DNA of 64,000 nucleotides from an uncultured Candidatus Saccharibacteria bacterium. Lineage in GTDB: Bacteria; Patescibacteriota; Minisyncoccia; Phycocordibacterales; UBA2100. Under the pieces are notes generated by a model. The model searched no databases. It saw nothing but the letters and a program-made list of their open reading frames with translations, and had not been told where the DNA came from. Each line of letters begins with the position of its first letter. Position 1 is the stretch's first letter. The stretch lies in contig CAYNND010000006.1 of assembly GCA_964398775.1 (NCBI GenBank), forward strand, positions 3,890-67,889, read 5' to 3'. The position numbers and the translations under genes are program-made. Below are positions 9,537-40,500 of the stretch, piece by piece.

Positions 9537-10322
9537 TCACTTCATGCTCTGCACAGCGCGATGTACCTCCTTACTTCTATGTGCTTGCACAAGTTTTACA
9601 AACACAGAACCCGCGATAGCAATTGGTGCAAAGGCATGCACCGCACGGACATCATCTCGTGTGCTGATTCCGAAACCGATACCAATCGGGAGCTGCGTCA
9701 GGGCTCGCACAGTACTCAGGTAGTGTTTGACTCCATCAAGTGTTGCCTGTTTTCCGGTCGTTCCTTGTCGGGAGGTGCAGTATATGAATCCACTTCCAAG
9801 AGGGAGTATTTTTTTGAGGCGAGTTTTCGTAACTCCTGGCGAGATTACGGGGATGATGTGTATGTCATGTGCTCGAGCGGCTGAAACGATGCGAGACCCT
9901 TCCTCAGTATCGAGTGGTATATCAGGGATGATGAGTCCTGCAACGTGACTTGCGGCAGCATCTGCCACAAATGCCTCAATTCCATATCGAAACACTGAAT
10001 TGCCATAACACATGATAACGATAGGTGTTCTCGGGTGTCTGTGCCCAAATACATGTGCCATCTCAAAAGCATCAGCTGGAGCTGGTGCATGCTCGACAGC
10101 TATTTGGCATGCAGCAGCAATTGTTGGTCCGTCAGCCATAGGGTCTGAGAAGGGGATCTGCATTTCAAGGATGTCTGCGCCGCCACGAATCATGTCGTCT
10201 GCAATATGTGCAGAAGCATCTATGTCGGGGAAGCCCACTATCATATGTGTCATCAAGAGCTGCCCTTTTTTCTCTGCGAGGAGTTGCGTGAGGGTATTCA
10301 TATTAGTATCGAGAAAGTTCAT
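9537..10322 (-). CDS. trpA: tryptophan synthase alpha chain
   Basis: GADILEMQIPFSDPMADGPTI and a C-terminal GFGIST motif. 261 aa. Overlaps trpB by 20 nt. Confidence 0.9.
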   Translation of the reverse strand: MNFLDTNMNTLTQLLAEKKGQLLMTHMIVGFPDIDASAHIADDMIRGGADILEMQIPFSDPMADGPTIAAACQIAVEHAPAPADAFEMAHVFGHRHPRTPIVIMCYGNSVFRYGIEAFVADAAASHVAGLIIPDIPLDTEEGSRIVSAARAHDIHIIPVISPGVTKTRLKKILPLGSGFIYCTSRQGTTGKQATLDGVKHYLSTVRALTQLPIGIGFGISTRDDVRAVHAFAPIAIAGSVFVKLVQAHRSKEVHRAVQSMK

Positions 10323-11541
10323 CTGCTAAAAATGCCTTGAATGTGCCATCGCCATGTTCTCTTGCGAGAGTGAACAAATCTTTATCACCTCGACCAGAAA
10401 CATTGACCACAATCGTCTTTGTTTTTGAGAGGGTTGGTGCAAGCTTGAGTGCATACGCAAGCGCATGCGCACTTTCAAGCGCTGGAATAATTCCTTCGTT
10501 TCGCGCAAAAAACTCCACAGCAGCAAGTGCCTCAGTGTCTGTGGCTGTTGTAAGCTCAAGCCGCTTCGCTTCATAGAGCATCGCAAGGTCGGGGCCAAGC
10601 CCTGGATAATCAAGCCCAGCAGCGATACTGTGCGTCGGGGCAATCTGTCCATCTTTTGTTTGTAAGAACAGAGATTTGTATCCTTGGAAGATGCCTGGCT
10701 CTCCTGCAATTTTCCTGCTTGAATGCTCGCCAACTGCATTTCCTCTTCCTCCCGCTTCAACACCAATGAGTCGCACTTTTGTATGAGGAATGAATGCGTC
10801 AAATGCACCGATTGCATTACTACCACCTCCAACGCAAGCGATGACAGCAGCGGGGAGAGTGGCACCAGTGTGTTCTTTGAGTTGTGATTGTATTTCGCGC
10901 CCGATGATTGACTGGAAGTATCTGTTCATTTCAGGATATGGTTTCGGCCCGAGCACAGAACCAATCACATAGTGAGCATCTGCAAGGTGTTCCATCCAAT
11001 ACTTGAGCGCTTCGTTGACCGCATCTTTCAATGTTTTGCTCCCTGATTCAACTGAAATGACACGGGCACCCATGAGTTCCATAAAAAAAACATTTGGGCG
11101 TTGTCTGCGAATATCTTCTGCGCCCATAAACACTACGCACTTCATTCCAAGTTTTGCGGCGACGGTCGCTGTTGCGACGCCGTGCTGACCTGCACCAGTC
11201 TCTGCAATGAGTGTTGTTTTTCCGAGGGTGCGTGCGATGAGTGCTTGTCCAAGGCAGTGTGTAATTTTGTGAGCGCCCGTAATGTTCAGACCTTCATTTT
11301 TTAAATAAATGCGGGCACCTTTGCAATGTTTTGTTGCTTGTGCGGCAAAGGTAAGTGGTGTCGGGCGACCTGAAAAGTGTTTCAGTAGTTGTGCGTACTC
11401 TTTCCGGAATTGGGCTGAGCGCTGCGCTTTCTCAAATGTCTCTACAAGTTCTCTGAGGGGCTCATGCAACATTTCAGGAACATAGGCGCCACCATACTGT
11501 GGGTGTTGATTTTTTTTCCCGCTGACTGAGTGTTTTTTCAT
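10303..11541 (-). CDS. trpB: tryptophan synthase beta chain
   Basis: GRPTPL, the PLP-lysine context NITGAHKITH, ETGAGQHGVATA and GGGSNAIG. 412 aa. Confidence 0.95.
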   Translation of the reverse strand: MKKHSVSGKKNQHPQYGGAYVPEMLHEPLRELVETFEKAQRSAQFRKEYAQLLKHFSGRPTPLTFAAQATKHCKGARIYLKNEGLNITGAHKITHCLGQALIARTLGKTTLIAETGAGQHGVATATVAAKLGMKCVVFMGAEDIRRQRPNVFFMELMGARVISVESGSKTLKDAVNEALKYWMEHLADAHYVIGSVLGPKPYPEMNRYFQSIIGREIQSQLKEHTGATLPAAVIACVGGGSNAIGAFDAFIPHTKVRLIGVEAGGRGNAVGEHSSRKIAGEPGIFQGYKSLFLQTKDGQIAPTHSIAAGLDYPGLGPDLAMLYEAKRLELTTATDTEALAAVEFFARNEGIIPALESAHALAYALKLAPTLSKTKTIVVNVSGRGDKDLFTLAREHGDGTFKAFLADELSRY

Positions 11542-11547
11542 ATCTAT

Positions 11548-12327
11548 TTATACTACTAATGCGGCTTGTAATGAAGCAATATGTTCAGCAGGGTGCGATG
11601 ATTGCAATATTGATGCACCCACGAGTATGCCTCGCGCACCCGCTGCACGTACACGCGACACATCTGCAGCGTTCTGTATTCCAGATTCGCTGATGACTGG
11701 GATTGAGTGCGGGATAGTGGTGATCAGTTGTTCGGTTACCGACAGGTCAATGGTGAGCGTATCAAGGTTTCGATTGTTGATACCAATAATACGCGCGCCG
11801 CAACGGAGGGCTTTCTCCACTTCAAGTTCAGTATGCACTTCTACAAAATATCCAAGATTGCATGCAGTGCACGCTGCGATGCATGCAACAAGTTCTGCCT
11901 CATCAAGTACTGAGGCAATAAGTAAAACAGCATCAGCACTAGTCAACGCCGTTTCGTATATCTGGTAGACATCAACAACAAACTCCTTTCGTAAAATGGT
12001 TTGCGGGGCAAGAGCATGCACTTGCTCAAGCAATTCGAGGCTGCCACCAAAATACTTTGTATCTGTAAGTACTGATATGCAGTTAATCGTTGTTGGTGCA
12101 TACTTTTTCGCGACAGAAAGTGGGTCACTGGTGAGAGTCCCATGAGATGGTGATTTCGGTTTTATCTCACCAATGAGTACTCCTGTACTTTCAAATAGCT
12201 CAAAAAAAGGACGGCGGGGTCTGTACAAGTCGGTACGAGCCTGGAGTGTCTCAAGCGGCAGGCGCGCTTTGAGTGCTGCGACTTCTTCTTTTTTATGTGC
12301 GATGATTTCATCCAAGATGTTTGTCAT
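11548..12327 (-). CDS. trpC: indole-3-glycerol-phosphate synthase
   Basis: GEIKPKSPSHG, INCISVLTD, FVEVHTELE, IGINNRNL. 259 aa. Confidence 0.9.
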   Translation of the reverse strand: MTNILDEIIAHKKEEVAALKARLPLETLQARTDLYRPRRPFFELFESTGVLIGEIKPKSPSHGTLTSDPLSVAKKYAPTTINCISVLTDTKYFGGSLELLEQVHALAPQTILRKEFVVDVYQIYETALTSADAVLLIASVLDEAELVACIAACTACNLGYFVEVHTELEVEKALRCGARIIGINNRNLDTLTIDLSVTEQLITTIPHSIPVISESGIQNAADVSRVRAAGARGILVGASILQSSHPAEHIASLQAALVV

Positions 12328-12971
12328 ACTGTGTGTGCGTGACTGATAAATGTTCTCACTTTCTCCTCATCTTTTTCACCGGTTGCTCTGCAGACCCCTG
12401 AGCGAACGTCGACTGCATACGGGCGCACTTGCGCGATAGCTCCACGCACATTTTCTGGATTTAATCCGCCCGCAAGGATAACTGGAATAGATACCGTTCG
12501 CACGATGTCTGCGCTGACGCTCCAGTCGTGGGTAACCCCAGTCCCGCCGGTGGTGCCTTTCAGTGATGTATCAAGCAGGAGTGCATGTGCTGCAGCTTCA
12601 AAACTCTGTGCTCGTTCCACGCTGCTGCTATCTTGAACGTGGACGACAGCAATAAACTGCACGTAGGGGAATTGCACACGGAGCGTGCTGATATGTGCGG
12701 GAGTAATATGTGAGTGACATTGGACAACTGAAGTACCAGTTACAGATATAAGTGCAGCGATAGACTCAATACTTTCATGTGTGGTCACTATGACGCCCTG
12801 AACAAAGGGGGGCAGAGCAGTGAGTATGTCTCGAGCAGTCTCTGGAGTGACAAAATGCTTCTGTGATTCGGTATGCGGTCCAACAAGAATACCTACAGCG
12901 TCTGCACCGCTCCGTGCTGCAAGGAGTGCTTCATTAACACTTCGGTTACCGCATATTTTTATTCGAGTCAT
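12324..12971 (-). CDS. trpF: phosphoribosylanthranilate isomerase
   Basis: MTRIKICGN...GADAVGIL...LAGGLNPENV. 215 aa. 4-nt overlaps with both neighbours. Confidence 0.85.
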   Translation of the reverse strand: MTRIKICGNRSVNEALLAARSGADAVGILVGPHTESQKHFVTPETARDILTALPPFVQGVIVTTHESIESIAALISVTGTSVVQCHSHITPAHISTLRVQFPYVQFIAVVHVQDSSSVERAQSFEAAAHALLLDTSLKGTTGGTGVTHDWSVSADIVRTVSIPVILAGGLNPENVRGAIAQVRPYAVDVRSGVCRATGEKDEEKVRTFISHAHTV

Positions 12972-13990
12972 AGTGCAGAATATTTTTGTGATGCGCTGAT
13001 AAGTGACTCAAGTGCGTGCAGAGCGCGTCCAGTATCAATACTCTCGTGCGCGTGCGTAATACCTTGCGCGATTGAGTGTGTCACCCCTGCTGCATAGAGT
13101 CCTGCTGCTGCATTGAGTACAACTACGTCTCGCCGCGCACCAGTTTCACCACTGAGGATTGCACGCGTTATAGCTGCGTTTGCCACTGCATCACCACCAG
13201 TGAGGGCTCCTTTCTTCGGTTTTTTAAACCCAAGCTTTTGCGGGTCGATAGTAAGGCGCTTCACACGAGTCCGCTCGACGAGCACCGCATCTGTCGGAGC
13301 ACTCGTGCTCACCTCATCGAGGCCGTCGCGACTGTGAACGATAAGTGCTCGGGCGTATCCAAGTTTTTGAGCAACAGGTGCGAGTCTGTGGAGTCCGTTT
13401 ATGCTTGGGACACCGATGAGCTGTGTTCGTGTTCCTGCTGGGTTTGCAAAGGGGCCAAGGAGGTTAAAGAGTGTTCGTATACCAAGTGTTTTTCTGAGTG
13501 CTCCAACTTGTTTCAGTGCAGGATGAAAGAGTGGAGCAAATAGAAATACAATTCCCACTTCGCGGTACACTGCAGCTGCTAACTCTGGAGTCAGTTGCAC
13601 GTTCACACCTAGCGCTTCAAGTACATCAGCGCTTCCGCATTTGCTACTCGCTGCGCGGTTACCGTGCTTTGCAATGCAAACCCCTGCACCGGCAAGTACA
13701 AATGCTGCAGTTGTTGAAATGTTAAATGTATGTGCGCCGTCGCCACCAGTACCTACGATATCAAATGCGCCTGGAGCGTCGACTCGTTTCATGTGGTCGC
13801 GCAATGCATGAACTGCACCGACAATCTCTTCTGTCGTTTCTCCTTTCATGCGCAGCGCTGTAATGCATGCGCTTGCAAGTGCGCCGTCGACTGTCCCATC
13901 CATCAACGCACTGACAAACGAACGTATCTCTTTTGTAGAACAATCCGTATGTGCTACAAGCTGTGCGAGCAGTTGTTGTGTTGGGTTCAT
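12968..13990 (-). CDS. trpD: anthranilate phosphoribosyltransferase
   Basis: GTGGDGAHTFNISTTAAFVLAGAGVCIAKHGNRAASSKCGSADVLEALGV. 340 aa. Confidence 0.95.
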   Translation of the reverse strand: MNPTQQLLAQLVAHTDCSTKEIRSFVSALMDGTVDGALASACITALRMKGETTEEIVGAVHALRDHMKRVDAPGAFDIVGTGGDGAHTFNISTTAAFVLAGAGVCIAKHGNRAASSKCGSADVLEALGVNVQLTPELAAAVYREVGIVFLFAPLFHPALKQVGALRKTLGIRTLFNLLGPFANPAGTRTQLIGVPSINGLHRLAPVAQKLGYARALIVHSRDGLDEVSTSAPTDAVLVERTRVKRLTIDPQKLGFKKPKKGALTGGDAVANAAITRAILSGETGARRDVVVLNAAAGLYAAGVTHSIAQGITHAHESIDTGRALHALESLISASQKYSAL

Positions 13991-14586
13991 GAAAGTGATT
14001 GTATAAAATTGGTAAGCATCTGTTTGCCGCCTTCAGTTGCAAAAGATTCTGGATGAAACTGTATACCTTCAATTCGTCTTTCCTTGTGGCGAAGTCCCAT
14101 GATATCTCCCTCACTGGTCTCTGCGGTAATACTGAGGCACGCTGGAAGGGTAGAGCGTTCGGCGATAAGTGAATGGTACCGCATGACTTCTATACCTTGC
14201 GGTAGACCCGCAAAAACCCCAGCACTGTCATGGGAGATGGTGCTTGTTTTACCATGCATCGGAAGGGCAGCTCTGACGACATGCCCCCCACAGTAGTGTG
14301 CTATTCCTTGCATGCCGAGACATACGCCGAGAATAGGTACGGGGAAGTCTTCATCTGTCAGTACGTCAGCACACACACCAAAGTATGCACGATCACTCGG
14401 GTCACCTGGCCCGGGGGAGAGCACAACACCGTCGTAGCCGCGCTCTCGAATCTCATCGAGAGTGATGTCTGTATTACGGATGACATCCACACTACCAGTA
14501 CTATTTTTTGCGAGGAAAATCTCTCCAAAGTATTGGTAAAGGTTATACGTAAATGAATCGTAGTTGTCGATGATGAGTAGTTTCAT
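13987..14586 (-). CDS. trpG: anthranilate synthase component II (glutamine amidotransferase)
   Basis: MKLLIIDNYDSFTYNL...ILGVCLGMQ. Class-I GATase triad context. 199 aa. Confidence 0.9.
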   Translation of the reverse strand: MKLLIIDNYDSFTYNLYQYFGEIFLAKNSTGSVDVIRNTDITLDEIRERGYDGVVLSPGPGDPSDRAYFGVCADVLTDEDFPVPILGVCLGMQGIAHYCGGHVVRAALPMHGKTSTISHDSAGVFAGLPQGIEVMRYHSLIAERSTLPACLSITAETSEGDIMGLRHKERRIEGIQFHPESFATEGGKQMLTNFIQSLS

Positions 14587-14591
14587 ACGAT

Positions 14592-15947
14592 TTAGTTAAA
14601 AGTTTCGGTTAGAGTTTTTTTCATTGCAGCAAGTTTACGCACGATTTCTTCGTACTCATGCGCAGGCTCTGAGTCGTACACAATTCCACTACATGTCTGT
14701 GCATACGCGCGCGATTCATTAATAAATACCGAGCGCAGCGCGAGCGCAAACGTGCAGTCGCCGTTGAAACCAAACTGCCCGACGCCACCCCCGTATGGTC
14801 CGCGTGCCTCCTTTTCATTTGCTTCGATAATTTTCAGCGTCTCAACTTTTGGGGTGCCGCATATTGTTCCCATGGGGAAGTTACTCGCGAGTGCCGAAAA
14901 GGCATCTTCTGTAGGCTTGATGATGCCTGAAACTTCACTCGAGAGGTGTTGCACATGCGAAAAGCGTACTACCTTCATAAGGTCTCGCACACGCACCGTG
15001 CCAAACTGTGCGACACGGCCGATATCGTTTCTGTGCAGGTCAACGAGCATCACATGTTCTGCGCGCTCTTTTGGGTCATTCATGAGTGCACGTGCCAGCT
15101 GCTGGTCTTCTGCCTCATCTTTTCCGCGGCGTGTTGTGCCTGCAAGTGGCTTAGTTGTCATTTCTCCATCGCGCAGTGAGAACAATAACTCAGGAGAAGC
15201 ACCAATTATTTTTCGCTTCTGAAAAGAAAGATAATACATGAACGGAGAAGGGTTCACTTCGCGCAGTCGTTCGTAGATGCGTAGTGTGTCACCTGAGATG
15301 GTGTAGTGTGATTTCAAGCCAACTTCGCATTGAAATGTATTTCCAGCACGAATGTGTTCTTTCACTCGACCAACAATCTGTGCATGTTCATCTGCGGTCA
15401 GCTCATCACCATCAAAGGTGACTGCAAGTGGCGCAGGAGTGTATGTGTCAGCGAGTACTTCGTGCACGAGTGACTCACGGTCTCGTTCGTAGCAAAAGTA
15501 GAAGAGTTCATTCGTTGTTTTGTCATAGACGAGTCCATCGTCGTATGCGCCAAAGAGGAAGGTGGGGAAGTCAGGGTGAGTTTTCACAGGGACAGTTGGT
15601 TCAAAGTATTGGGTTGCCTCGTAGCCGAGATATCCCACAAGTCCACCACTGTAGTTTCGTGCAATCGTGTGCTCAGGCATCACTTTCCGGAGCGCGTCGT
15701 ATGCGTTAGTGACTGTATATGCAGTCCCATCAATAGAGAAATCAGTATTATTTCCGACAATGAGATGTTTCGGGTCAAAGCCGATGATTGAATAGCGAGC
15801 AAATCGTCCTTCCTCACCAAGAGACTCAAAAATGAAACTCGTGTCAAAGCGTCGCTCTATCTTTTTGAAAAGTTCAAAGAAATCGATATCGTCTGCAACT
15901 TTTCTGTACTGTGGTTTCTTGCCGAGTATGATGCGTGGTGGGTTCAT
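14592..15947 (-). CDS. trpE: anthranilate synthase component I
   Basis: Chorismate-binding C-terminus GTICGTPKVETLKIIEANEKEARGPYGGGVGQFGFNGDCTFALALR. 451 aa. Confidence 0.9.
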   Translation of the reverse strand: MNPPRIILGKKPQYRKVADDIDFFELFKKIERRFDTSFIFESLGEEGRFARYSIIGFDPKHLIVGNNTDFSIDGTAYTVTNAYDALRKVMPEHTIARNYSGGLVGYLGYEATQYFEPTVPVKTHPDFPTFLFGAYDDGLVYDKTTNELFYFCYERDRESLVHEVLADTYTPAPLAVTFDGDELTADEHAQIVGRVKEHIRAGNTFQCEVGLKSHYTISGDTLRIYERLREVNPSPFMYYLSFQKRKIIGASPELLFSLRDGEMTTKPLAGTTRRGKDEAEDQQLARALMNDPKERAEHVMLVDLHRNDIGRVAQFGTVRVRDLMKVVRFSHVQHLSSEVSGIIKPTEDAFSALASNFPMGTICGTPKVETLKIIEANEKEARGPYGGGVGQFGFNGDCTFALALRSVFINESRAYAQTCSGIVYDSEPAHEYEEIVRKLAAMKKTLTETFN

Positions 15948-20474: not shown

Positions 20475-22052
20475 ATGAAAACAAAGCACCATCGTGTGAA
20501 AAAAATTAGTAGCACGCTCTTGATTCCAGCTGGAATCGCGCTCGCATTAGTCCTGATGGTGCTCTACAAACCTGCAGATAGCACTTTTGTCGAGATTGGA
20601 TACACTGAGCAGTCACCACTCGGAGAGACAGGAGGTGAAATTATTCCTGCATCATGTCCTTCTCACTTGCACGATGCTCCAGTCAACTATGGTGCTACCT
20701 GTTATTCAGGGGCAAATGCATGTGGTCAAACAGCCACTGGAACGATTCAGTGTAATGGGGCATGTAGCGCTGCTACCCCAGGAGTTACAACTCCTACTGG
20801 TGCTACCTACGGTGCGGCATGTACTTCAGCAGCAAATGCATGTGGTCAGACAAACACAGGAACGATTCAATGTGATGGATATTGCAGTGTCGGACAACCA
20901 GCAAACCCTGTGGGGTATGGTAATGCATGCTCAGGTCCCGCGAACAGTTGTGGTAGTACCAACTCAGGAACGTTAACGTGCTCTGGTGGTAGTCCAACAC
21001 TCTACTGTACCGCAACATCAGCTCCAGCTGATCCAGTACTCCCCGCAACATGTGGCTGTGCAAGCCCACCTGTAAACTACGGTACAGCATGTACAAGTGG
21101 CGCAAATATCTGTGGATTTACGAATACGGGTACTATTCAGTGCAATAGCACCTGCAGCGCTACAACGCCATCTGACTCACTCTGCACAAGCACCTGTGGA
21201 AATGGTGTCTGTGATGCACATGAAACTGTCGGCAGCTGCCCAGCAGACTGTCCAGGTTCAGGAACACCACTCACAGGATGGGGATGGAGTGATAACATTG
21301 GCTGGATATCAGTGAACTGTTCTGACCTTGGGACTTGTGCGACGCGTAACTATGCGCTTCGAAAAAATACTTCAAACAAAATTGTCGGATACGCATGGAG
21401 TGAGAACATCGGGTGGATTAGTGCAAACGCGTCAGAGCTTGCAGGGTGCCCAAGTGGTTCGTGTGATGTCAGTGTCTCATCGCTTGGACGTGTGTCAGGA
21501 TGGATGAAGGCATTAAACGCAGCGGGTGGCTGGGACGGATGGATTTCACTCAATGGTACAAACTATCAAACTATGCTCGAGTCAGACAACATACTTTCAA
21601 ACTGGGCATGGGGAAGTGATGTAACGGGTTGGATTCTCTGGTCAGCACAACTTTCATGTGCGCAGACAGCAGGTGATTTCTGCTCGGGAGACTTGTGGCA
21701 GCATCGTCATCCAAACTGTACTGTGACAACGGTACTCGACTGTGCTCCAAGTACATGTTCAACAAGTACAAACCAGTGTGTCGTTATGCCACCACCATCT
21801 GCAATCACGGGACTTCGTGCGACGCCACAACTCGTCTCGCCAGGAGGTACATCGGTTATAAGTTGGAACATTAAGAACGCGACCTCATGTACAGTGAGCG
21901 GTAACGGCAACTCGTGGACTGGTGTGACCGGTACTCAGACAACCAACCCTATTAACACAGTCTCAACATATACACTCAGTTGTACTGGACTCGGAGGTAA
22001 CCTTACACAGACAGCAATCATCAAGTTTGCTCCGAAGTGGCAAGAGAAGTAA
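20475..22052 (+). CDS. secreted Cys-rich repeat protein with W-rich NIGWIS repeats and a C-terminal Ig-like domain
   Basis: Signal anchor. Four ~40-aa repeats (VN)YG(A/T)ACTSGANxCGQTNTGTIQC(N/D)GxCS. Four W(S)xNIGWIS-type repeats. C-terminus ...ISWNIKNATSCTVSGNGNSW...STYTLSCTGLGG is a beta-sandwich-like pattern. Confidence 0.6.
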   Translation: MKTKHHRVKKISSTLLIPAGIALALVLMVLYKPADSTFVEIGYTEQSPLGETGGEIIPASCPSHLHDAPVNYGATCYSGANACGQTATGTIQCNGACSAATPGVTTPTGATYGAACTSAANACGQTNTGTIQCDGYCSVGQPANPVGYGNACSGPANSCGSTNSGTLTCSGGSPTLYCTATSAPADPVLPATCGCASPPVNYGTACTSGANICGFTNTGTIQCNSTCSATTPSDSLCTSTCGNGVCDAHETVGSCPADCPGSGTPLTGWGWSDNIGWISVNCSDLGTCATRNYALRKNTSNKIVGYAWSENIGWISANASELAGCPSGSCDVSVSSLGRVSGWMKALNAAGGWDGWISLNGTNYQTMLESDNILSNWAWGSDVTGWILWSAQLSCAQTAGDFCSGDLWQHRHPNCTVTTVLDCAPSTCSTSTNQCVVMPPPSAITGLRATPQLVSPGGTSVISWNIKNATSCTVSGNGNSWTGVTGTQTTNPINTVSTYTLSCTGLGGNLTQTAIIKFAPKWQEK

Positions 22053-22082: not shown

Positions 22083-22853
22083 ATGAAAAAATCTTTCTAC
22101 GTACTATTTTTCCTACTTCCATTTTCAGCACTCGCCTGGACGGGACCATCTGCAGCACCACCAGGGAACAATATCTCTGCACCAGTAAATACAAGTAGTG
22201 CAGATCAGTTCAAGCCTGCTGTAATGGGTGCAGATATTCTAAATATCACTGGGGCAAATCAGTACTTTAATTTTGGCAATACAACCGGTTCTGCAGGTTT
22301 TGGCTTTCGAAACAATGGCGGTATTGTCGAATACAAGCAAAATGCAGGACAAAACACTGCCGCAGGGTGGACCGAGTTTGGGCAGGGACGAGGGAGTCTG
22401 ATGAAGATACGACTCGCACAGTGTGGTGGCGGTTGCGCTAGTTATCATGCACTCAATACATGGATAAATGTCTCTGGATACGGATACACATGGTCTACCG
22501 CGCTCAACACAGACTCAAGTACATTTACGCATAACAATACAGGAACAATTACTGTCTCAAAGGCTGGTGTATATCGTGTACGAGTTGGCACTATGTTTGT
22601 CCCAACTACTGATGCTGCCTATGTTTACGGATGCCCGATTATAAATGGCTCTGCAAACTGTGGGCCGCTTGGCTCTGCTGAGGGGTTGCGCCACTCATAT
22701 CATCCAGCGGGCTGGTGGGGTCAGAATATTACGTCGTTTATTTTTGAACTTACTGCTGGTACGACCGTCGGGTATGGTTACTACACACCATACACACTTT
22801 CATACTGGGCGAACGATTCCTACACGTTTCTTGAAGTAACTCGAGTTAATTAA
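22083..22853 (+). CDS. secreted fibre/adhesin-like protein, paralog family member A1 (conserved N-module plus C-terminal domain type A)
   Basis: Signal peptide, then AWTGPSAAPPGNNISAPVNTSSADQFKP...NFGNTTGSAGFGFRNNGG. 256 aa. About 65% identical to the next gene. Confidence 0.7.
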   Translation: MKKSFYVLFFLLPFSALAWTGPSAAPPGNNISAPVNTSSADQFKPAVMGADILNITGANQYFNFGNTTGSAGFGFRNNGGIVEYKQNAGQNTAAGWTEFGQGRGSLMKIRLAQCGGGCASYHALNTWINVSGYGYTWSTALNTDSSTFTHNNTGTITVSKAGVYRVRVGTMFVPTTDAAYVYGCPIINGSANCGPLGSAEGLRHSYHPAGWWGQNITSFIFELTAGTTVGYGYYTPYTLSYWANDSYTFLEVTRVN

Positions 22854-22920
22854 TAATCATACTTGTATCATGCACACAAAACTTTATATAAAAAAATATA
22901 CGAAACAGGCACAGGGAATC

Positions 22921-23688
22921 ATGTTTATCCTGCTCGTTTCTTTTTTGGGCGCAGGTTTGGTAAGTGCATGGACTGGTCCAACAGCAGTACCTCCGAACAA
23001 CAACGTTGCTGCGCCAGTAAACGTAGGAGGGGCGAACCAGTCAAAACCAGGACTCATCGGCGCAAATATTTTCAATGTCTATGGTTCAGGACAGTACATA
23101 AACTTCGGCACTACCACAGGCTCATCAGGTTTTGGCTTCCGCAACAATGGTGGCATCATAGAATATAAACAAAGTGCAGGACAAAATACTGCAGCAGGAT
23201 GGACTGAAGTGGGGAAGGGCCGTGGTAGTTATGTACGTATCGCACTCAATTACTGTGGTGGCGGTTGTGGAAGCTACCATGCGCTCAACACTTGGGTGCG
23301 CGTGTCGAATTATGGATATACATGGACAACGTATACCAATACTGACACTGCAACATTCACACCAAACGGCACTGGCACCGTCACAATAAATAAAGCAGGC
23401 GTGTATCGTATTCGCCTCCAGACAATGATGATTCCAACCGCAAGCACTGCATGGACTGCATACGGATGTCCAATGATAAACGGAGTAGAAAACTGTGGAC
23501 CACTCGGAGCGGGTGAAGGATTAAAGCACGCATATTACCCAGCAGGGTGGTGGGGACAAAACATAACTGAATTCACTTTTGAACTTTCAGCTGGAAACAC
23601 AGTAGGATATGCATACTATATCCCTGTTGCGATGAGTTACTGGGCACACGATACGTATACATTCCTCGACATACTTCGTCTGAACTAA
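22921..23688 (+). CDS. secreted fibre/adhesin-like protein, paralog A2
   Basis: Start moved to the internal Met (MFILLVSFLGAGLVSAWTGPTAVPPNNNV...). Collinear with A1 over its full length, including the GCP(I/M)ING..NCGPLG...PAGWWGQNIT C-domain. Confidence 0.65.
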   Translation: MFILLVSFLGAGLVSAWTGPTAVPPNNNVAAPVNVGGANQSKPGLIGANIFNVYGSGQYINFGTTTGSSGFGFRNNGGIIEYKQSAGQNTAAGWTEVGKGRGSYVRIALNYCGGGCGSYHALNTWVRVSNYGYTWTTYTNTDTATFTPNGTGTVTINKAGVYRIRLQTMMIPTASTAWTAYGCPMINGVENCGPLGAGEGLKHAYYPAGWWGQNITEFTFELSAGNTVGYAYYIPVAMSYWAHDTYTFLDILRLN

Positions 23689-23693
23689 ATCGT

Positions 23694-24302
23694 ATGAATC
23701 GACTTATTCTCATAATTGTGAGTGGTATCGTTGCTGGTGGGGTTGTTTGGTATATTTTCTCTCACGGGATATCTACACCACAAAAATCTCAAACCACTTC
23801 GGCTGATACTATGACCATGGAAGCGGAAGTGAAGCGAGTACTTATGTTCATGCACCCACATATAACCGAAGAAGTTGCCGATGAGTACTTGGATGAACTT
23901 AAAACTTTAAACAAGCAATATGGGTATACTTCAGGTGGTGAGCCAAAAGGGGATATTGAGACGATGCGTGCGTATGCAGGAGCAGTCGAGGTAATCCAAA
24001 AAAAGTACAACATGATGCCGCAGGCAGATACCCAGGCAGCTCCAGCGTCAGGGTACCCGCAGCCACATCTTGCACCACAACAGACCGATACAATGTACAT
24101 GCCTCCGTCACAGATAGGTAGTCAGAGCACCACTACGCAGAGCCCTGCTCTGCAAACCGCAGGCTCGCAGAAACCACTCGGTCCAACTGCAAATCCAAAC
24201 AGTGGTGCGGCAAAGGGTGGTCCGGCGTCAACTCCACCACTAATCCAGCAAGACAATCTACCTCCAGCACCTCCTGTGCCTCCTCAAATGAGTAGTGAAT
24301 AA
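23694..24302 (+). CDS. membrane-anchored Pro/Gln-rich protein
   Basis: N-terminal TM LILIIVSGIVAGGVVWYIF, a helical segment, then a P/Q/T/A-rich tail ending PPAPPVPPQMSSE. 202 aa. Confidence 0.55.
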   Translation: MNRLILIIVSGIVAGGVVWYIFSHGISTPQKSQTTSADTMTMEAEVKRVLMFMHPHITEEVADEYLDELKTLNKQYGYTSGGEPKGDIETMRAYAGAVEVIQKKYNMMPQADTQAAPASGYPQPHLAPQQTDTMYMPPSQIGSQSTTTQSPALQTAGSQKPLGPTANPNSGAAKGGPASTPPLIQQDNLPPAPPVPPQMSSE

Positions 24303-24373: not shown

Positions 24374-25636
24374 ATGTCTAAGCGTACTTTCTTATTGGTA
24401 GTACTGTCTTGCGCGATCCCTGTTGCACTCTTTGCCTGGACAGGACCATCAGCTGCACCACCAGGAAACAATGTCTCAGCTCCAGTGAACATCGGTTCAG
24501 CCGATCAGTTCAAACCAGGTATCATGGGGGCAAATATCATCAATATTTACGGCTCAAGTCAGTATCTTAGTTTTGGGAACACCACGGGAGCGAGCGGATT
24601 TGGTATCAGAAATAATGCAGGCTATTTAGAGTTCAAAAATAGTGGTGGTGCATGGAACCGCTTCGGCCCACCATTTACTGCAGGCTTAAGTGTGAGTGGT
24701 ACTCTCGGTACGCTCTATGGTGGCTCATATCGTATCAATGCAAACGGTGACAACGCAACAGGTGGAGGAATACTCATCGCAGACGATGGAGGCTTCTTTG
24801 ACTATAATGACGGGTGGGTTACATTTAACGGTTCAACAGGCATCAAGATTGCAGGAAATAATGGTGCGGCAAGTCAGGGCAATCAGCTACAGGTGAATGG
24901 AAGAATCGATGCAAATTCCTATGGAGGTAACGGGGGAATCATCTCATCAGGAAATTATGGTGGAACAGGAACCGCTGCATATTTTCCCTCAGGCATCTGG
25001 GCAAATGGTGCAAGTTCATGGCTCTATGGGACCATCTATACAAATGGACAGGTATACGATACTGCGGTTGGTACAGTGCGCGATGCGGGGGGTGGCTGGA
25101 TTCGTACCTATGGTGCAACTGGGTGGTACTCACAAACGTATGGAGGTGGCTGGCATATGTCCGACACGACATGGCTCAGAGCATACGGGAACAAAAATGT
25201 CTATACACCAGGCACAATCAGAGGTGATGCATCGCTCGACTCAAACAATCTCTGCGACCCTGCACACTCATATTGCTCAACGATATATGGTTTGTGGTAT
25301 GTGCATACGTACTACTATTCTGACAAACGGTTGAAAAAAGATATTAAAGATATGTCAGATGATTATGGTCTTGGAGCAATCATGAAGCTACGCCCTGTGC
25401 AATTTACATGGAAAGACAAAACTTCTTCAGAAAAACTTGGTCCACAAATTGGTCTCATCGCACAAGAAGTTGAACAAGTGATTCCTGAGGCTGTGGATAC
25501 TATGCCAAGTAAGGAAATTACTAACGAAGATGGCACGAAAGAAACAATTGAAAATCCAAAATCAGTCACGCATCAGAACCTTGTTGTACCGCTGATTAAG
25601 TATGCACAAGACTTAAAAGCACTCAACGATGTGTAA
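24374..25636 (+). CDS. secreted fibre protein with the conserved N-module and a C-terminal S74-type intramolecular chaperone (tail-fibre/endosialidase auto-processing) domain
   Basis: N-terminus FAWTGPSAAPPGNNVSAPVNIG...FGNTTGASGFGIRNNAG. Gly/Asn-rich middle. C-terminus YYSDKRLKKDIKD...LRPVQFTWKD...GLIAQEVEQVIPEAV matches the SDxRLKxNI / GxIAQEV..V.PE.V signature of the phage tail-spike chaperone domain. Confidence 0.75.
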   Translation: MSKRTFLLVVLSCAIPVALFAWTGPSAAPPGNNVSAPVNIGSADQFKPGIMGANIINIYGSSQYLSFGNTTGASGFGIRNNAGYLEFKNSGGAWNRFGPPFTAGLSVSGTLGTLYGGSYRINANGDNATGGGILIADDGGFFDYNDGWVTFNGSTGIKIAGNNGAASQGNQLQVNGRIDANSYGGNGGIISSGNYGGTGTAAYFPSGIWANGASSWLYGTIYTNGQVYDTAVGTVRDAGGGWIRTYGATGWYSQTYGGGWHMSDTTWLRAYGNKNVYTPGTIRGDASLDSNNLCDPAHSYCSTIYGLWYVHTYYYSDKRLKKDIKDMSDDYGLGAIMKLRPVQFTWKDKTSSEKLGPQIGLIAQEVEQVIPEAVDTMPSKEITNEDGTKETIENPKSVTHQNLVVPLIKYAQDLKALNDV

Positions 25637-25754
25637 CAGAAAAAATAGATGCCCCCAAGAAACAGGTCAGAGAGTTGCAGTCACGGTAGACATATACACA
25701 TATAGAAGCGTAGGAGTGACAGCCCCTGCGGGGAAAGTGCTACGATGGTAGGGT

Positions 25755-26477
25755 ATGCACCGAATCATCACTATTATTTGCGCTGTACTTTTTCCAGCAG
25801 CACTCTTTGCATGGACAGGTCCGACAGCTGCACCACCTGGAAACAACATCGCTGCGCCAGTCAACGTCGGCGGTACTGACCAGTTCAAGCCTGCAATTGT
25901 CGGCGCGAACATTGTCAACATTTACGGTTCAAACCAGTATTTGAACTTTGGTAACACAACTGGTTCAACAGGATACGGTATCCGCAACAACGGAGGGAAG
26001 CTCGAGGCAAAGAACTCAGGTGGCGCATGGATTAAGCTTATAGATAAGCCATGGTTTGTCGCAAGTGGCGATGGATACGGCTGGCAGGGACAATCAGCAG
26101 GTACGTGGCTCTACCCAACAACACTCACAACCTTACGAGGCAATGCAACCGCAAGTTACAACCCTGCAACGGCGCTCTTCACAGCACCTGAAGCAGGTCT
26201 CTATTTCTGTTTCTTCCAGGGGTATAAGAGTTATACAGCTGCAGGGTATCACCATACCATTTCAACATGTAATGGCACGGTCTGTAATGGTTTTGGTAGC
26301 TGGGACTATACACTCGCATCACAGGGGTATACCTCATATGACCAATCAACATCACAAATCTCTGGAATCTATAACCTCGCACTCGGGGAAACAATTGGCT
26401 TTCGTATGTACTCTGAACAAGCAAACAGCTACTCATACTACCCACCATACTCACGCACGGGATGCGCAAAATTGTAA
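25755..26477 (+). CDS. secreted fibre/adhesin-like protein, paralog B1 (conserved N-module plus C1q/TNF-like C-domain)
   Basis: FAWTGPTAAPPGNNIAAPVNVG...NFGNTTGSTGYGIRNNGG. C-domain FTAPEAGLYFCFF...YYPPYSRTGCAKL. 240 aa. Confidence 0.7.
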   Translation: MHRIITIICAVLFPAALFAWTGPTAAPPGNNIAAPVNVGGTDQFKPAIVGANIVNIYGSNQYLNFGNTTGSTGYGIRNNGGKLEAKNSGGAWIKLIDKPWFVASGDGYGWQGQSAGTWLYPTTLTTLRGNATASYNPATALFTAPEAGLYFCFFQGYKSYTAAGYHHTISTCNGTVCNGFGSWDYTLASQGYTSYDQSTSQISGIYNLALGETIGFRMYSEQANSYSYYPPYSRTGCAKL

Positions 26478-26917
26478 CTATGAGTAAAACACTATTCATC
26501 ACAATAGTCCTTATTGCAACGCTTGCAGGCGCGTGGTGGTTTTTAAGTACTGACTCAGGCTCATCGAGTATCATAGGAGTACCGGTTCACAAAGAGGAAA
26601 AAGCTGAACCACCAAACTTACCGAAGCCACCAAGTTTTGTTGAGCGAGTACTGAAGGACAATCCACATATTTCAAGAGAGACTGCAGAGCAATATGAAGC
26701 TGAGCGCATACAAACAAATGTCGCGCATCAAGAGTATCGTGTGCGCGTCTTAAAAGAAAAAAAAGTGAGCGACCCTGAGGAGATGATTGCAATTGAACAG
26801 GGTTTGGCACTTGAGCTGCAGGCACAATTTGAACAGCTTGAAGCAAAATACAATATCCATATGCAGCAGGGGAAGCCTGGTTTTATTGGGGCACCGATTC
26901 CGCCCCCACTCCCATAG
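26462..26917 (+). CDS. membrane-anchored Pro-rich small protein
   Basis: TM LFITIVLIATLAGAWWFL, a helical acidic middle, and a C-terminus GKPGFIGAPIPPPLP. The start may be the internal Met at about 26480. Confidence 0.5.
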   Translation: MRKIVTMSKTLFITIVLIATLAGAWWFLSTDSGSSSIIGVPVHKEEKAEPPNLPKPPSFVERVLKDNPHISRETAEQYEAERIQTNVAHQEYRVRVLKEKKVSDPEEMIAIEQGLALELQAQFEQLEAKYNIHMQQGKPGFIGAPIPPPLP

Positions 26918-26928
26918 TAGATGTATAT

Positions 26929-27702
26929 ATGAACAACAACAGCTATAGCACACTGATACGTACCATTTGCTCAGCAGTAGTCGCAGCGTTTTTGATTGCA
27001 ACCTGTGGGGTGCAGACGCTTGCTGCATGGACTGCTCCTACGGGAACACCGGGCAATAATAATGCAGCACCACCTGTAAATACCGGAACAGGGACTCAGG
27101 CAAAACCAGGCGTGCTTGGAGCAAACATTCTGAACATTTATGGTTCAAACTTGTATCTCAACTTCGGTAACCCAGACGGTGCAAGTGGTTTCGGTATTCG
27201 CAGTAACGCAGGTGTGCTCGAAGGTAAAGATTCTGGGGGAGCGTGGGGCAAGCTTATAGATAAGCCATGGTTTATTGCAAACGGCACTTCAGCAGTGTGG
27301 CAGTCTCAGGGTGCTGCGACTTGGCTCTATCCAACTGCGCTTGATAATAAAAAAGGTAATGCCGCAGCGAGTTTTAACTCAGCAACAGGGTACTTCACTG
27401 CTCCAGAGGCTGGAGTTTACCTCTGTTTTTTCAGTGGGTATAAGAGTTACTCCACTCCTGATGTTCACCACACCATATCTACATGTTCAGGCGGCCCGAG
27501 CTCAGTATGCAACAACTTCGGAAACTATGACTATACGCTTGCTTCACAAGGATATTCGGGCTATGACCAGTCAACATCACAGCTTATCGGACTCTACAAT
27601 CTCATTGCGGGTGAAAGCATCACATTCCGTATGTACTCAAGTGCGGGAAACAGCTATGCGTACTACCCACCGCAGAGTCGTATGGGCTGCGCTAAGCTGT
27701 AA
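26929..27702 (+). CDS. secreted fibre/adhesin-like protein, paralog B2
   Basis: AAWTAPTGTPGNNNAAPPVNTG... Collinear with B1 through FTAPEAGVYLCFF...YYPPQSRMGCAKL. 257 aa. Confidence 0.7.
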   Translation: MNNNSYSTLIRTICSAVVAAFLIATCGVQTLAAWTAPTGTPGNNNAAPPVNTGTGTQAKPGVLGANILNIYGSNLYLNFGNPDGASGFGIRSNAGVLEGKDSGGAWGKLIDKPWFIANGTSAVWQSQGAATWLYPTALDNKKGNAAASFNSATGYFTAPEAGVYLCFFSGYKSYSTPDVHHTISTCSGGPSSVCNNFGNYDYTLASQGYSGYDQSTSQLIGLYNLIAGESITFRMYSSAGNSYAYYPPQSRMGCAKL

Positions 27703-37507: not shown

Positions 37508-40500
37508 ATGAAAAAAGCGCTCGTATTAGTTATTTCACTGCTCACTATTACCTCATCAGCAGATGCGCTGCGTGTACGCCCGCAGACAGATGATATTCCT
37601 GACACAGGGAATGCATTGTACTGCCCGCAACTCTCTCAAACATTGAAACGAGGAATGCGTGACGCCTCCACCTACCCAGCAGGGCAGGTTTCAGAACTTC
37701 AAAACTTTCTTGCAGACTATTTTGAACTAAACGAGCAAGACGTAATCTCAGGCTTCTTTGGAAGAAACACACAGCGATACGTCATGAATTTTCAGCAAAA
37801 GTACGGACTTCCGGCGTACGGAATCGCTGGAACACTCACGCGGATGAAAATCGCTGAGATATGTACAAGTCAAACAGTACAACCTCCTGTATGCAATAAC
37901 TACCCCAAGCCTACCTGTGGTCCGAATCAAAAATTGCTTGAAGAATGGAATGATTATCGTGGATGTCCAACGGTTGGTCGCTGTGTAGATGTAGTAAATC
38001 TCGGTCAACCAAACGTGAGTATTTCAACACCCCGAACATCGTACATTACTGGCGAACCAGTCCTTGTCACAACAAAAGCGACACGCACTCTCGGGAATGA
38101 TTACGGTGCTGCAACTCCTGCAGAAGGATACAAAGTACTTGTCACTGTAACGTATCCAGAAGGTGCATTCATTACAAACTTCAACCCAACATATAACGCA
38201 AGTACAGGGTACTGGGAAGGCAGTTATGTTCCAAGCTATAACGGTGGTGCACACGTGATTCGAACTGAGTTGTACTGTACAAACAAATCATTACCGTGCG
38301 GTAGCTATATTGGTGTAACGACTGACCAAGTCATTACTTCTGCAAAGACGACAATTTCTGTCACGCAGGCAAGCTCAGTTCCGACATGTACAATAAGTAC
38401 TGATAAATCATCCTACCAGCTCAATGACACAATAACGTTTTCATGGACTTCTACAGGTGCTTCGTACGCGCAATTCCTCTCCGATACTTCTGGGAAAGAT
38501 GCTTTACAAGTACCTGGCGACAAGCTGCCAGCACAAGGTTCACAGCAAATACGCGCAACTGTCTATGGTAATCCATACGTGACATTAAAAGTTGTCGGAC
38601 CAGAAGGTCAGAGTGCGCTTTGCCAAAAAACAGTCTCTGTTACATATACCAACTCTGGACCACTGACAGTACAGGCATCACTTGCAGATCCAAAAGGTCT
38701 TGGACGTGAATCATTTCCATTTGGTGAACAACTTGTTATAAAATGGAATGTATCAGACCCGAGCGATGTTGAGACTGCAGGATGGGGGATATACGGAAAA
38801 TCAGAAACAAGCATTGAGCTTCACCCCGTAGATAATCCAACAGCTGCGAGTACCCGTGTTATACGTGTAGCTGAGACGGGCGTATTCCCACACACATTCA
38901 CCTGGAACGTCACACAAGAAGGACTCTTTGGTGACCGAGTCGCACCGGGGCGCTACTATATTTATGTAAATGTACCTTCAAAGAAACAGAGAGGGTATGT
39001 AGTAGGTGTGGCTGGTCCAATAGGAATAGGAGGTACGACAGCTTCAAATGGTATTACTGTCACCGCACCAAATGGTGGTGAGCAGTGGCAGCTCGGTAGT
39101 ACAAACTCAATCACCTGGTCACCGTATAGTTACAATCCCGACGTCAATCCCTCAAGGGATGTGAAGGCATACTTAGAGCAGAAAGACGCGTACGGTAATT
39201 TTGTCACCGTCGGGCGCATCACAGATTCGGGCAAGGCGTCAATTCATTGGAACGGGTACCTTGAAGATGACGTCGCACAGGGGTATGTAAATCACAGGAT
39301 GGCGAGACCAGGCAGTGGATACTATATCCGCGTTGTAAATAAAGTGACTGGAGCCTCTGACAGAAGTGACAATCCGTTCAGTATCATGCCGCAAGGGAGC
39401 ATAAAAGTGTCTGTAGAGATGCTGAGCTACCCTCCAGGCTCGCGAGTAGTATATGACCCGCAGTTCCATGAAGATGCACGCAATGTTGTAGAAATTACAG
39501 ACCAGAAATTGCTGAACTCATTTGGAAATTACACTGTTTCTTGGAGATCAACTGTAGCGGTGGGTACATGTTCTCTGATTTACCCTGGAAGAACTATGGC
39601 AGCAACTGGAAATACGCTGGATAAAATTGATAATCTTCCAACAAGCGGCACTCAGGCTATCAGTCTCTTTCATGACGGAAGACAGCCATTCTTCAGTGTG
39701 AGTGTTCATTGTGACCATGCGGCAACTGGTTCAGTTCAAGGCTCAAGTATAGGATATGTCTATATTAAGCCAATGTTTACTGCGCTCTCAATCACTGAGC
39801 CAAACGGTGGTGTTGTCAACGCTGACCAAGAGAGTACTATCAAGTGGACTTCTGCGGGGATTGCGCAGAATTCAATCGCGCTCTATAAAAATGATCAATG
39901 GTATAAGTGGATACTGCGAGATTACCCAGGTGGAAACAGTGGTACTTCATGGACCCCAAGAAACTACATTACTGATGCAGACATTGCATCAGGGTCAATC
40001 TGGAAGATATACATCACGGGGCAACGTTCAGATGGCACAGGATACCTTGATGATAAGAGCGATACACCGTTCTCATTTTCAAGTAGCACGATTCCAGATT
40101 CTATATCTCTGACGCAACCTGCTGCCAGCACGTTCTACACGCTCGGTCAGCCGATACCAATCGCGTGGAATATACCGGTCCCAAATGCACGTCAGAAGAC
40201 GCAGGTACTAGTGGAGCTGAAAGGAGTCAATACAACAGGAGGTAATGGTGGTGGTATATGGCAAAGCGCTGAAATACAAACAACCCCTGGTCAAACAAAT
40301 GGCTCATACGCGTGGCAGACTGGTGGTTATGGAGGGCTCAATGCTACAGGAACATACGCAGTAACTGTGTACTGGGTTGACTGTGAACCGCAAGGTTGTA
40401 CGTATAACTATGACCAACAAGGAGGTCTTGGTAGGAGACGTTATGCTCAGTCAAATCCTGTATACATCACTATCAATCCTGCCGTGAGCCAAGGGAATGC

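Follow-up and report, generated by a model that had tools for sequence, protein, structure and literature searches.

Bdellovibrio bacteriovorus carries a family of 21 chromosomally encoded proteins, the mosaic adhesive trimers (MATs), in which a signal peptide is followed by a conserved N-terminal domain (Caulton et al. 2024, PMC10769870). Thirteen MATs end in an SDxxxK-type S74 tip and the other eight in different tips, which include TNF/C1q-like heads as in Bd2439 and Bd2734, with 4QPY cited as a close match of the latter (PMC10769870). Self-cleavage of Bd3182, a MAT with an S74 tip, is blocked by the substitution S782A, and the MATs are surface-located and bind glycans (PMC10769870). The survey table of that study lists other predators and epibionts, with Patescibacteria not among them (PMC10769870). 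Here, we analysed a 64-kb stretch of DNA (the window) from an uncultured Candidatus Saccharibacteria bacterium (contig CAYNND010000006.1), in which the open reading frame (ORF) at 24374..25636 on the plus strand encodes a protein of 420 amino acids (aa) that ends in a Peptidase_S74 intramolecular chaperone and stands in an operon with four paralogs.

We propose that the product of this ORF is exported through the Sec pathway and matures into a short trimeric surface fibre in a member of the Patescibacteria (Minisyncoccia-like), with a likely role in adhesion or recognition by an epibiont; we hold this reading to be probable, with appreciable room for doubt. Minisyncoccia is a class of the phylum Minisyncoccota, which we take to correspond to Patescibacteria or the candidate phyla radiation (CPR).

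The MATs, which are prey-recognition fibres, are the closest known system, although what we claim is a functional analogy and not membership. In both cases the genes are chromosomal and not of phage, a signal peptide directly precedes, in an analogous arrangement, an N-terminal domain conserved across the family, and multi-paralog sets combine some SDxxxK S74 ends with other, non-S74 trimeric tips. TNF/C1q-like heads likewise occur in both, 4QPY being among the top matches of the window paralog at 25755-26477, and the carriers in both live on other cells, the organism here being a presumed epibiont. The window proteins are shorter, at 240-420 aa compared with about 1,000 aa for the MATs, and so is their conserved N-terminal module (N-module), at about 75 aa compared with about 130 aa for the MAT N-domain. 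The window genes lie in one operon together with genes for a GW-repeat protein and small membrane proteins, whereas the terms 'operon' and 'gene cluster' are absent from the text of the MAT paper (PMC10769870). A further difference is the host lineage, which here is Patescibacteria. These bacteria are, as far as known, monoderm. A regular-expression search for the capping-loop motif of the MATs, V-G-G/N-pi-x-x-P-x-x-x-L, came back empty for the five window proteins and for 181 proteins with the N-module; another motif, VGIGT..P...L, is present in 53 of these 181 proteins and not in the window proteins.

The intramolecular chaperones of phages (endoNF, 3GW6; GA-1, 3GUD; 8HQZ; S16, 6F45) belong to the same domain family and fold as the C-terminal domain of the 420-aa protein, have the same S-x4-K dyad spacing and are likewise placed at the extreme C-terminus, after a fibre region. 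Unlike them, the carrier described here is predicted to be Sec-exported, is encoded among housekeeping genes and not in a virion module, and has an upstream region that is not a recognisable endosialidase or T5-type shaft. The ICA domain of MYRF, whose structure 7DC3 ranks first in the PDB by both single-sequence and structural comparison, is another case in which a cellular gene has domesticated an S74 domain for trimerisation-dependent self-cleavage, but MYRF is a membrane-bound transcription factor whose cleavage frees a nuclear fragment, and its biology is unrelated. PilV of R64 shares with the window protein a region of about 115 aa with 'GGGW.M.D.TW.R...K..YT' and the concept of a constant N-terminal part with variable C-terminal tips; here, however, no prepilin leader, DNA inversion system or pilus genes were found, and the variation comes from separate paralogous genes.

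A C-terminal S74 chaperone in a putative fibre precursor

The 420-aa protein and its parts are encoded as follows.

24374..25636, plus strand: gene of the 420-aa putative fibre precursor (ORF), comprising signal peptide, N-module, Gly-rich middle with a Shufflon_N-like region, and S74 chaperone
24374..24436, plus strand: Sec signal peptide, aa 1-21 (MSKR and a hydrophobic core, ...P-V-A-L-F-A, then W), from the sequence
24437..24664, plus strand: shared N-module, aa 22-97 (WTGPSAAPPGNNVSAPVN...QFKPG..GANI.N..G..YL.FG...G..GFGIRNN.G.LE.KNSGG.W), from paralog comparison
24884..25228, plus strand: Shufflon_N-like region, aa 171-285 (...GGGW.M.D.TW.R.Y..K..YT...), from Pfam PF04917
25319..25633, plus strand: Peptidase_S74 intramolecular chaperone, aa 316-420, from Pfam, profile search against the PDB, AlphaFold2 (AF2) and Foldseek
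25319-25321, plus strand: codon of the predicted scissile and nucleophilic Ser316, from alignment to solved chaperones
25334-25336, plus strand: codon of the predicted general base Lys321, from alignment to solved chaperones

A preliminary description of this DNA had placed a phage-type S74 chaperone at 25300-25636, that is, aa 309-420 and the stop codon, and the C-terminus that it quoted reads exactly so in the ORF. Residues 316-374, at the C-terminus of the protein, score 66.6 bits (E=2.4e-18) with the Pfam profile Peptidase_S74 (PF13884), whose curated cutoff is 22, over profile positions 1-57 of 58; the presence of the domain is confirmed, far beyond chance. A second profile, which covers the last ~115 residues of 25 diverse homologs, matched five solved entries when searched against the PDB sequences.

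6F45, phage S16 long tail fibre C-terminus: E=1.7e-17
7DC3, MYRF ICA domain: E=7e-15
8JOV, phage tail fibre: E=9e-15
3GUD, GA-1 neck appendage chaperone: E=3e-8
8HQZ, chain of an L-shaped tail fibre assembly (T5-like): E=4e-7

In each of these alignments Ser316 and Lys321 (S-D-K-R-L-K) sit on the Ser and Lys of the S-x4-K dyad, so that the Ser-Asp-x-Arg-Leu-Lys cleavage motif on which the preliminary description had relied does align with solved chaperones, and the chain of 3GUD, which is the released GA-1 chaperone, begins at the residue aligned with Ser316. The Ser, Asp and Lys of the dyad motif are invariant in all 25 aligned homologs.

An AF2 monomer model of the 420-aa protein, built with 43 homologs, is confident only at aa ~320-420, where the predicted local distance difference test (pLDDT) reaches 86-96; it also places a helix at aa 3-18, within the signal peptide, and beta strands at aa 55-97. 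A Foldseek search of the PDB with the S74 domain of this model returned 7DC3 (1.7e-6), 3GW6, which is endoNF (3.9e-4), and 3GUD (2.3e-3), and no significant PDB match other than intramolecular chaperones. By sequence, predicted fold and aligned dyad, aa 316-420 are a bona fide Peptidase_S74 intramolecular chaperone. Cleavage before Ser316 is predicted to release a fragment of 105 aa and 11.8 kDa (aa 316-420), in line with the C-terminal fragment of about 12 kDa that had been foreseen, and to leave, after removal of the signal peptide, a mature chain of 294 aa and 30.6 kDa.

Among the PHROG families, 21-22 were matched at E<=0.05, and 15 of them are tail-fibre or baseplate families. The best match is phrog_5668 (6.6e-19), and this family and phrog_1980, the two best and both tail-fibre families, cover aa 163-416. 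Because they span both parts, the Shufflon_N-like region and the S74 domain are evidently also joined in phage fibres. The Shufflon_N match itself (PF04917, E=7.1e-10 at aa 171-285) takes in profile positions 166-278 of 324, i.e. the middle only, and the region is presumed to be the distal part of the mature fibre. A search of the PDB sequences with the shaft, aa 97-315, found no relative.

An identical 420-aa protein is present in NCBI and in a Logan assembly. Named relatives come from metagenome-assembled genomes (MAGs) labelled 'Minisyncoccia', 'Patescibacteria group' or 'Pacebacteria', and a 59%-identical homolog is already called 'tail fiber domain-containing protein' in NCBI. Given this existing public annotation and the experimentally proven precedent of the Bdellovibrio MATs, it is only modestly surprising to meet a phage domain in a cellular gene; the reading of the domain as S74 is supported, and it is right but not unprecedented, its novelty having been overstated. 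The Joint Genome Institute (JGI) name of a 90%-identical homolog, trimeric autotransporter adhesin, was rejected: S74 and Shufflon_N are the sole Pfam matches, the C-terminus is the S74 domain, and there is no YadA-like anchor.

The gene lies among cellular genes, with a complete trpEGDFCBA operon, SecE, NusG, L11, thyA, dcd and folA in the same window, as well as Arg-, Ile- and Met-tRNA synthetases, a class II aminoacyl-tRNA synthetase, RecA, FtsK, EF-P, SSB, TatD and tRNA-His. PHROG and Pfam scans of the 64-kb window, unannotated ORFs included, found no capsid, tail, sheath, tube, baseplate, integrase or tailocin genes. The gene is plainly chromosomal and not of phage, as had been stated from the outset.

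Five paralogs with a constant N-terminus and different tips

The operon contains five paralogs on the same strand (22083-22853, 22870-23688, 24374-25636, 25755-26477 and 26929-27702), so the paralog family that had been assumed is real. Their first ~95 residues, consisting of the signal peptide and the N-module of ~75 aa, are the only part common to all five, with the consensus W-T-G-P-[ST]-x-x-P-P-x-N-N-x-x-A-P-V-N ... Q-x-K-P-G ... Y-L-N-F-G ... G-F-G-I-R-N-N-x-G-x-L-E-x-K ... G-G-x-W. The tips differ: one is S74, two are C1q/TNF-like and two are of a type, here called type A, whose fold is unassigned. Besides the S74 gene, the operon comprises the genes listed below, in which L002, L003 and L063 denote contigs that carry the same or a reduced operon. 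The ratios of nonsynonymous to synonymous substitution rates (dN/dS) given here and further on are pairwise values against the 89%-identical ortholog set and, because dS is high (0.9-2.8), are approximate.

20475..22052, plus strand: GW-repeat/Cys-rich/Ig-like membrane-anchored protein, 525 aa, a conserved neighbour of N-module genes
22083..22853, plus strand: paralog with N-module and type-A tip (Cys-containing); dN/dS 0.065
22870..23688, plus strand: second paralog with a type-A tip; dN/dS 0.057
23694..24302, plus strand: small single-pass membrane protein with a Pro-rich tail, 202 aa, at the same position in L002 and L063; 48% aa identity, fast-evolving
25755..26477, plus strand: paralog with N-module and predicted C1q/TNF-like head (AF2 and Foldseek); phrog_15750 2.6e-9; dN/dS 0.023
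26462..26917, plus strand: second small membrane/Pro-rich protein, position kept in L002, L063 and L003; dN/dS 0.052
26929..27702, plus strand: another paralog with a C1q/TNF-like head, sharing 63% identity with the modelled one; Pfam C1q weak, E=0.014; phrog_15750 1.4e-8

In the AF2 model of the paralog at 25755-26477 the tip has a pLDDT of 65-81, and Foldseek aligned it with C1q/TNF jelly-rolls at TM-scores of up to 0.72 (E~1e-5). Nearly all of its top 50 matches belong to the C1q/TNF family, including C1QL1-3, Caprin-2 C1q, 4-1BBL, collagen X NC1 and 4QPY. Two of the five paralogs are thus predicted to end in a trimeric C1q/TNF fold of the ten-strand jelly-roll type.

The type-A tip has no relative in Pfam, PHROGs or the PDB. 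Both of its carriers (22083-22853 and 22870-23688) contain a conserved CGGGC and further invariant Cys and Trp residues. A relationship between type-A and type-B tips was considered and rejected: the tips alone gave an hhalign probability of 1.5%, which is not significant, and the match of the full-length proteins is only apparent because it is driven by the common N-module. The two small membrane proteins share the motif HPHITEEVADEY / NPHISRETAEQY, their mutual match being weak (20 aa, E=0.007). NCBIfam returned zero matches for six cluster proteins tested.

Promoter and terminator scans over 19-29.4 kb are uninformative on operon structure because the sites found are no commoner than in shuffled sequence. 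No inverted repeats were found in 20-29 kb. At the DNA level the N-modules of the paralogs share only 62-71% identity, so nothing points to recent gene conversion.

The N-module family and its GW-repeat partner

When 1.84 billion representative proteins were scored with a profile of the five N-termini, 4,328 clusters reached E<=1e-3 and 485 of them E<=1e-10. Most of these proteins are 170-600 aa long and carry the module at the extreme N-terminus, with [A]W[T]GP within the first 70 residues in 104 of 118 short matches. The residue before the invariant Trp, whose median position is 26, is Ala in 161 of 178 members, and position -3 is A, V or L. Judged by these residues, the N-terminus is a standard Sec signal for signal peptidase I and not a prepilin leader.

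A Pfam scan of 114 N-module proteins found Peptidase_S74 attached in 20, Gly_rich_2 and HCBP_related in 4 each, C1q in 3, and T4 Gp34_trimer and collagen in 2 each; the best Pfam C1q match among family members has E=1.2e-9. Four of these domains, S74, C1q, Gp34_trimer and collagen, belong to trimeric fibres. Together with the two C1q/TNF tips of the window, this composition indirectly supports the link to fibre biology that the preliminary description had drawn for the whole paralog family.

The second half of the N-module (YLNFG..G..GYGIR.N.G.LE.KNSGG.W) is repeated 3-12 times in giant proteins of 2,000-6,000 aa (P0145-P0150, P0162 and P0168), and in a Caballeronia 'tail fiber domain-containing protein' (P0060) it stands directly before the S74 domain, which fits a fibre-shaft repeat. 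At least one of the giant proteins, P0150, ends in an S74 motif.

Scanning one genome per species, we found 56 N-module loci, nearly all of them in Patescibacteria (Paceibacterota, Yonath-, Kaiser-, Taylor-, Wildermuth- and Moranbacteria, and MAGs labelled Saccharibacteria). The GW protein encoded at 20475-22052 carries a hydrophobic anchor at its N-terminus, contains four or five Cys-rich repeats as well as 'GYAWS..IGWIS.N' repeats, and is Ig-like at its C-terminus. Its homologs were searched in the species-representative N-module loci by phmmer, and a regular-expression version was also made. Of 52 loci, 31 have a GW homolog within +-6 kb of the N-module gene, where uniform placement would give 42% (P=1.2e-5); 30 of these 31 pairs are on the same strand and 25 are less than 600 nt apart.

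The same pairing of GW and N-module genes is present at three loci labelled non-Patescibacteria (L010, L012 and L040). At L012 (4698-6924, on a 964-kb contig labelled Alphaproteobacteria) and at L040 (29-2678, Bdellovibrionales) it consists of a GW-repeat gene and a gene with signal peptide, AWTGP and S74 domain, and either horizontal transfer or mislabelled bins would account for it. The GW family has more than 765 homologs, all named 'hypothetical', and no Pfam model. Literature searches on S74, tail fibre or C1q in Patescibacteria and on the AWTGP motif found nothing relevant, and the N-module family and its GW partner appear undescribed.

Conservation and selection

The same gene order is found in three other metagenomic contigs (L002, L062 and L063), and two Minisyncoccia MAGs (L003 and L004) contain a reduced operon with the GW protein, a C1q-type paralog, a small protein, the S74 paralog and another small protein. 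The operon adjoins SIMPL-SecE-NusG in the window, L002 and L063, and lies between dcd and folA in L003 and L004. No integrase or transposase was found near the operon at either site.

For seven of the eight operon genes dN/dS is 0.02-0.07; for the eighth, encoding the small protein of 202 aa, dS is saturated and gives no ratio. Within the S74 gene, the overall ratio is 0.048, with 0.042 for the N-module, 0.055 for the middle and 0.027 for the S74 domain. Strong purifying selection on the operon genes is clear in its direction, and they are working genes, not phage debris.

At a contig end (L005, 1-11309), a 39%-identical homolog of the S74 fibre protein (P0008) has Replic_Relax, TrwB/TraG-like, DnaG zinc-ribbon and PadR genes as neighbours, so that a conjugative or mobile element may carry this homolog.

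A truncated 3′ end

Comparison with orthologs revealed that the coding region of this allele ends early.

25634..25689, plus strand: premature TAA stop and out-of-frame remnant (TEKIDAPKKQVRELQSR, then the stop) of the ancestral coiled-coil tail

The ortholog C-terminus reads ...ALNDAQQREIDALKEQVKQLQSR and then stops, and orthologs run ~16-17 residues past the window protein. The stop at 25634-25636 is a CAG to TAA change and is followed just downstream by a 1-nt deletion; the tail remnant TEKIDAPKKQVRELQSR is still legible out of frame up to the ancestral stop. The Pfam core at aa 316-374 is retained, as is most of the last helix (aa 401-419 in the AF2 model, pLDDT >90).

Proposed function and alternative readings

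In the mechanism that we propose, signal peptidase I would remove aa 1-21 before the invariant Trp, as the sequence pattern suggests. Outside the membrane, the S74 domain (aa 316-420) would trimerise and template the folding of the upstream Gly-rich/Shufflon_N-like region, by comparison with endoNF, GA-1, T5 pb1, MYRF and Bd3182, and the aligned dyad of Ser316 and Lys321 would then cut before Ser316. Cleavage would free the 11.8-kDa chaperone and leave a mature trimer of ~30.6 kDa per chain, with the new C-terminus (...HTYYY) as its exposed tip. The architecture of the family suggests that the N-module of ~75 aa probably fixes the five paralogs to a common cell-surface base, and that interchangeable trimeric tips would give alternative binding specificities. 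Going by gene adjacency only, the best candidate for the base would be the co-encoded GW-repeat membrane protein. By analogy with phage receptor-binding proteins and the Bdellovibrio MAT fibres, the fibres would most likely serve an epibiont to adhere to or recognise the surfaces of host or partner cells.

Beyond type IV pili, little is known of how ultrasmall Patescibacteria locate their hosts and stay attached to them, and a conserved secreted-fibre operon with its partner offers concrete, clonable candidates for host-range determinants. A theme known from Bdellovibrio, the domestication of a phage-fibre toolkit by cells living on other cells, would thereby reach a monoderm, genome-reduced phylum. 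The S74 domain alone mainly confirms an annotation that public pipelines have already made; it is the N-module family with its GW partner that is worth pursuing as a candidate host-recognition system.

A broader reading, which we put forward tentatively and consider on balance rather doubtful, is that the Patescibacteria possess a lineage-wide, hitherto undescribed host-recognition apparatus of Sec-exported short trimeric fibres docked on the GW protein, with tips swapped between paralogs and genomes setting the host range. Such fibres would combine a constant mature N-terminus (W-T-G-P...PP..N..AP.N) and a shaft module with tips that are S74-matured or of the C1q/TNF, collagen, Gp34 or other types. 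The apparatus would be the cellular counterpart of the receptor-binding-protein cassettes of phages and either independent of the Bdellovibrio MATs or very distant from them.

Several observations weigh against an adhesive surface fibre. The shaft at aa 99-191 is modelled at pLDDT <50 in the AF2 monomer, so that a beta-helical shaft is unsupported by the model. The allele of the window is without the last ~16 residues of the terminal coiled coil of the chaperone, and the loss of this tail could impair trimer nucleation. Only the adjacency of their genes suggests that the N-module would dock on the GW protein. At ~294 aa per chain the mature protein is short and may not project beyond the cell wall or S-layer. 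Finally, the window holds a complete tryptophan operon, which is believed to be unusual for obligate epibionts.

If the fibre is not adhesive, the protein could still be a surface or secreted trimer, such as an envelope or S-layer fibre, a lectin for nutrients or particles or an antagonistic factor, in which the S74 domain is only a folding device. The domain evidence fits such a protein equally, and given its full trp operon the organism may be less host-dependent than typical epibionts. Varied tips on a constant N-module together with a lineage-wide expansion are, however, the pattern of receptor-binding proteins, as in the MATs, and C1q/TNF tips are lectin- or receptor-type domains; we therefore judge this alternative unlikely.

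The lesions at the 3′ end raise the question of whether the gene is a decaying or hypomorphic copy, in which the nonsense codon and frameshift cripple the chaperone and the fibre no longer folds or is cleaved in this strain. The CAG to TAA change and the 1-nt deletion take away ~16 coiled-coil residues that the orthologs keep, and two lesions suggest that the tail is no longer under selection. Against this, the remainder of the gene, aa 316-420 included, is intact and strongly constrained (dN/dS 0.027-0.055), the Pfam core and most of the last helix are still there, and the same truncated allele occurs in two assemblies, which makes decay a distinctly improbable explanation.

We give very little credence to a phage, tailocin or extracellular contractile injection system (eCIS) tail fibre, whether left over from a prophage or provided in trans for a particle whose genes lie elsewhere. 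The best PHROG matches are indeed tail-fibre families (aa 163-416), and the 39%-identical homolog lies beside relaxase/TraG-like mobile-element genes; yet the 64-kb window has no phage, sheath, tube, baseplate or integrase genes, a Sec signal peptide would not be expected on a virion fibre assembled in the cytoplasm, and the operon is conserved with cellular partners across genomes under purifying selection. A type IV pilus tip adhesin of the PilV/shufflon kind, to which the Shufflon_N match at aa 171-285, the NCBI name 'shufflon system ... pilus tip adhesin PilV' of some relatives and the prepilin N_methyl domain of some distant matches would point, is just as scarcely credible, since the N-terminus has a Sec signal with Ala at -1 and Trp at +1 and no prepilin motif (G|F/M...E), since the lack of inverted repeats in 20-29 kb and the common strand of all paralogs speak against a shufflon, since no recombinase or pil genes are among the window ORFs scanned, and since the Shufflon_N profile is matched in its middle only (166-278 of 324).

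Other features of the window

The complete tryptophan operon (trpE, G, D, F, C, B, A) occupies 9537-15947 on the minus strand. Patescibacteria are generally described as being without amino-acid biosynthesis. Large ORFs at 1335-3881 and 45928-47886 are without any family match, and at 37508-40591 on the plus strand a protein of 1,027 aa is encoded whose sole recognisable part is an N-terminal peptidoglycan-binding domain (PG_binding_1).

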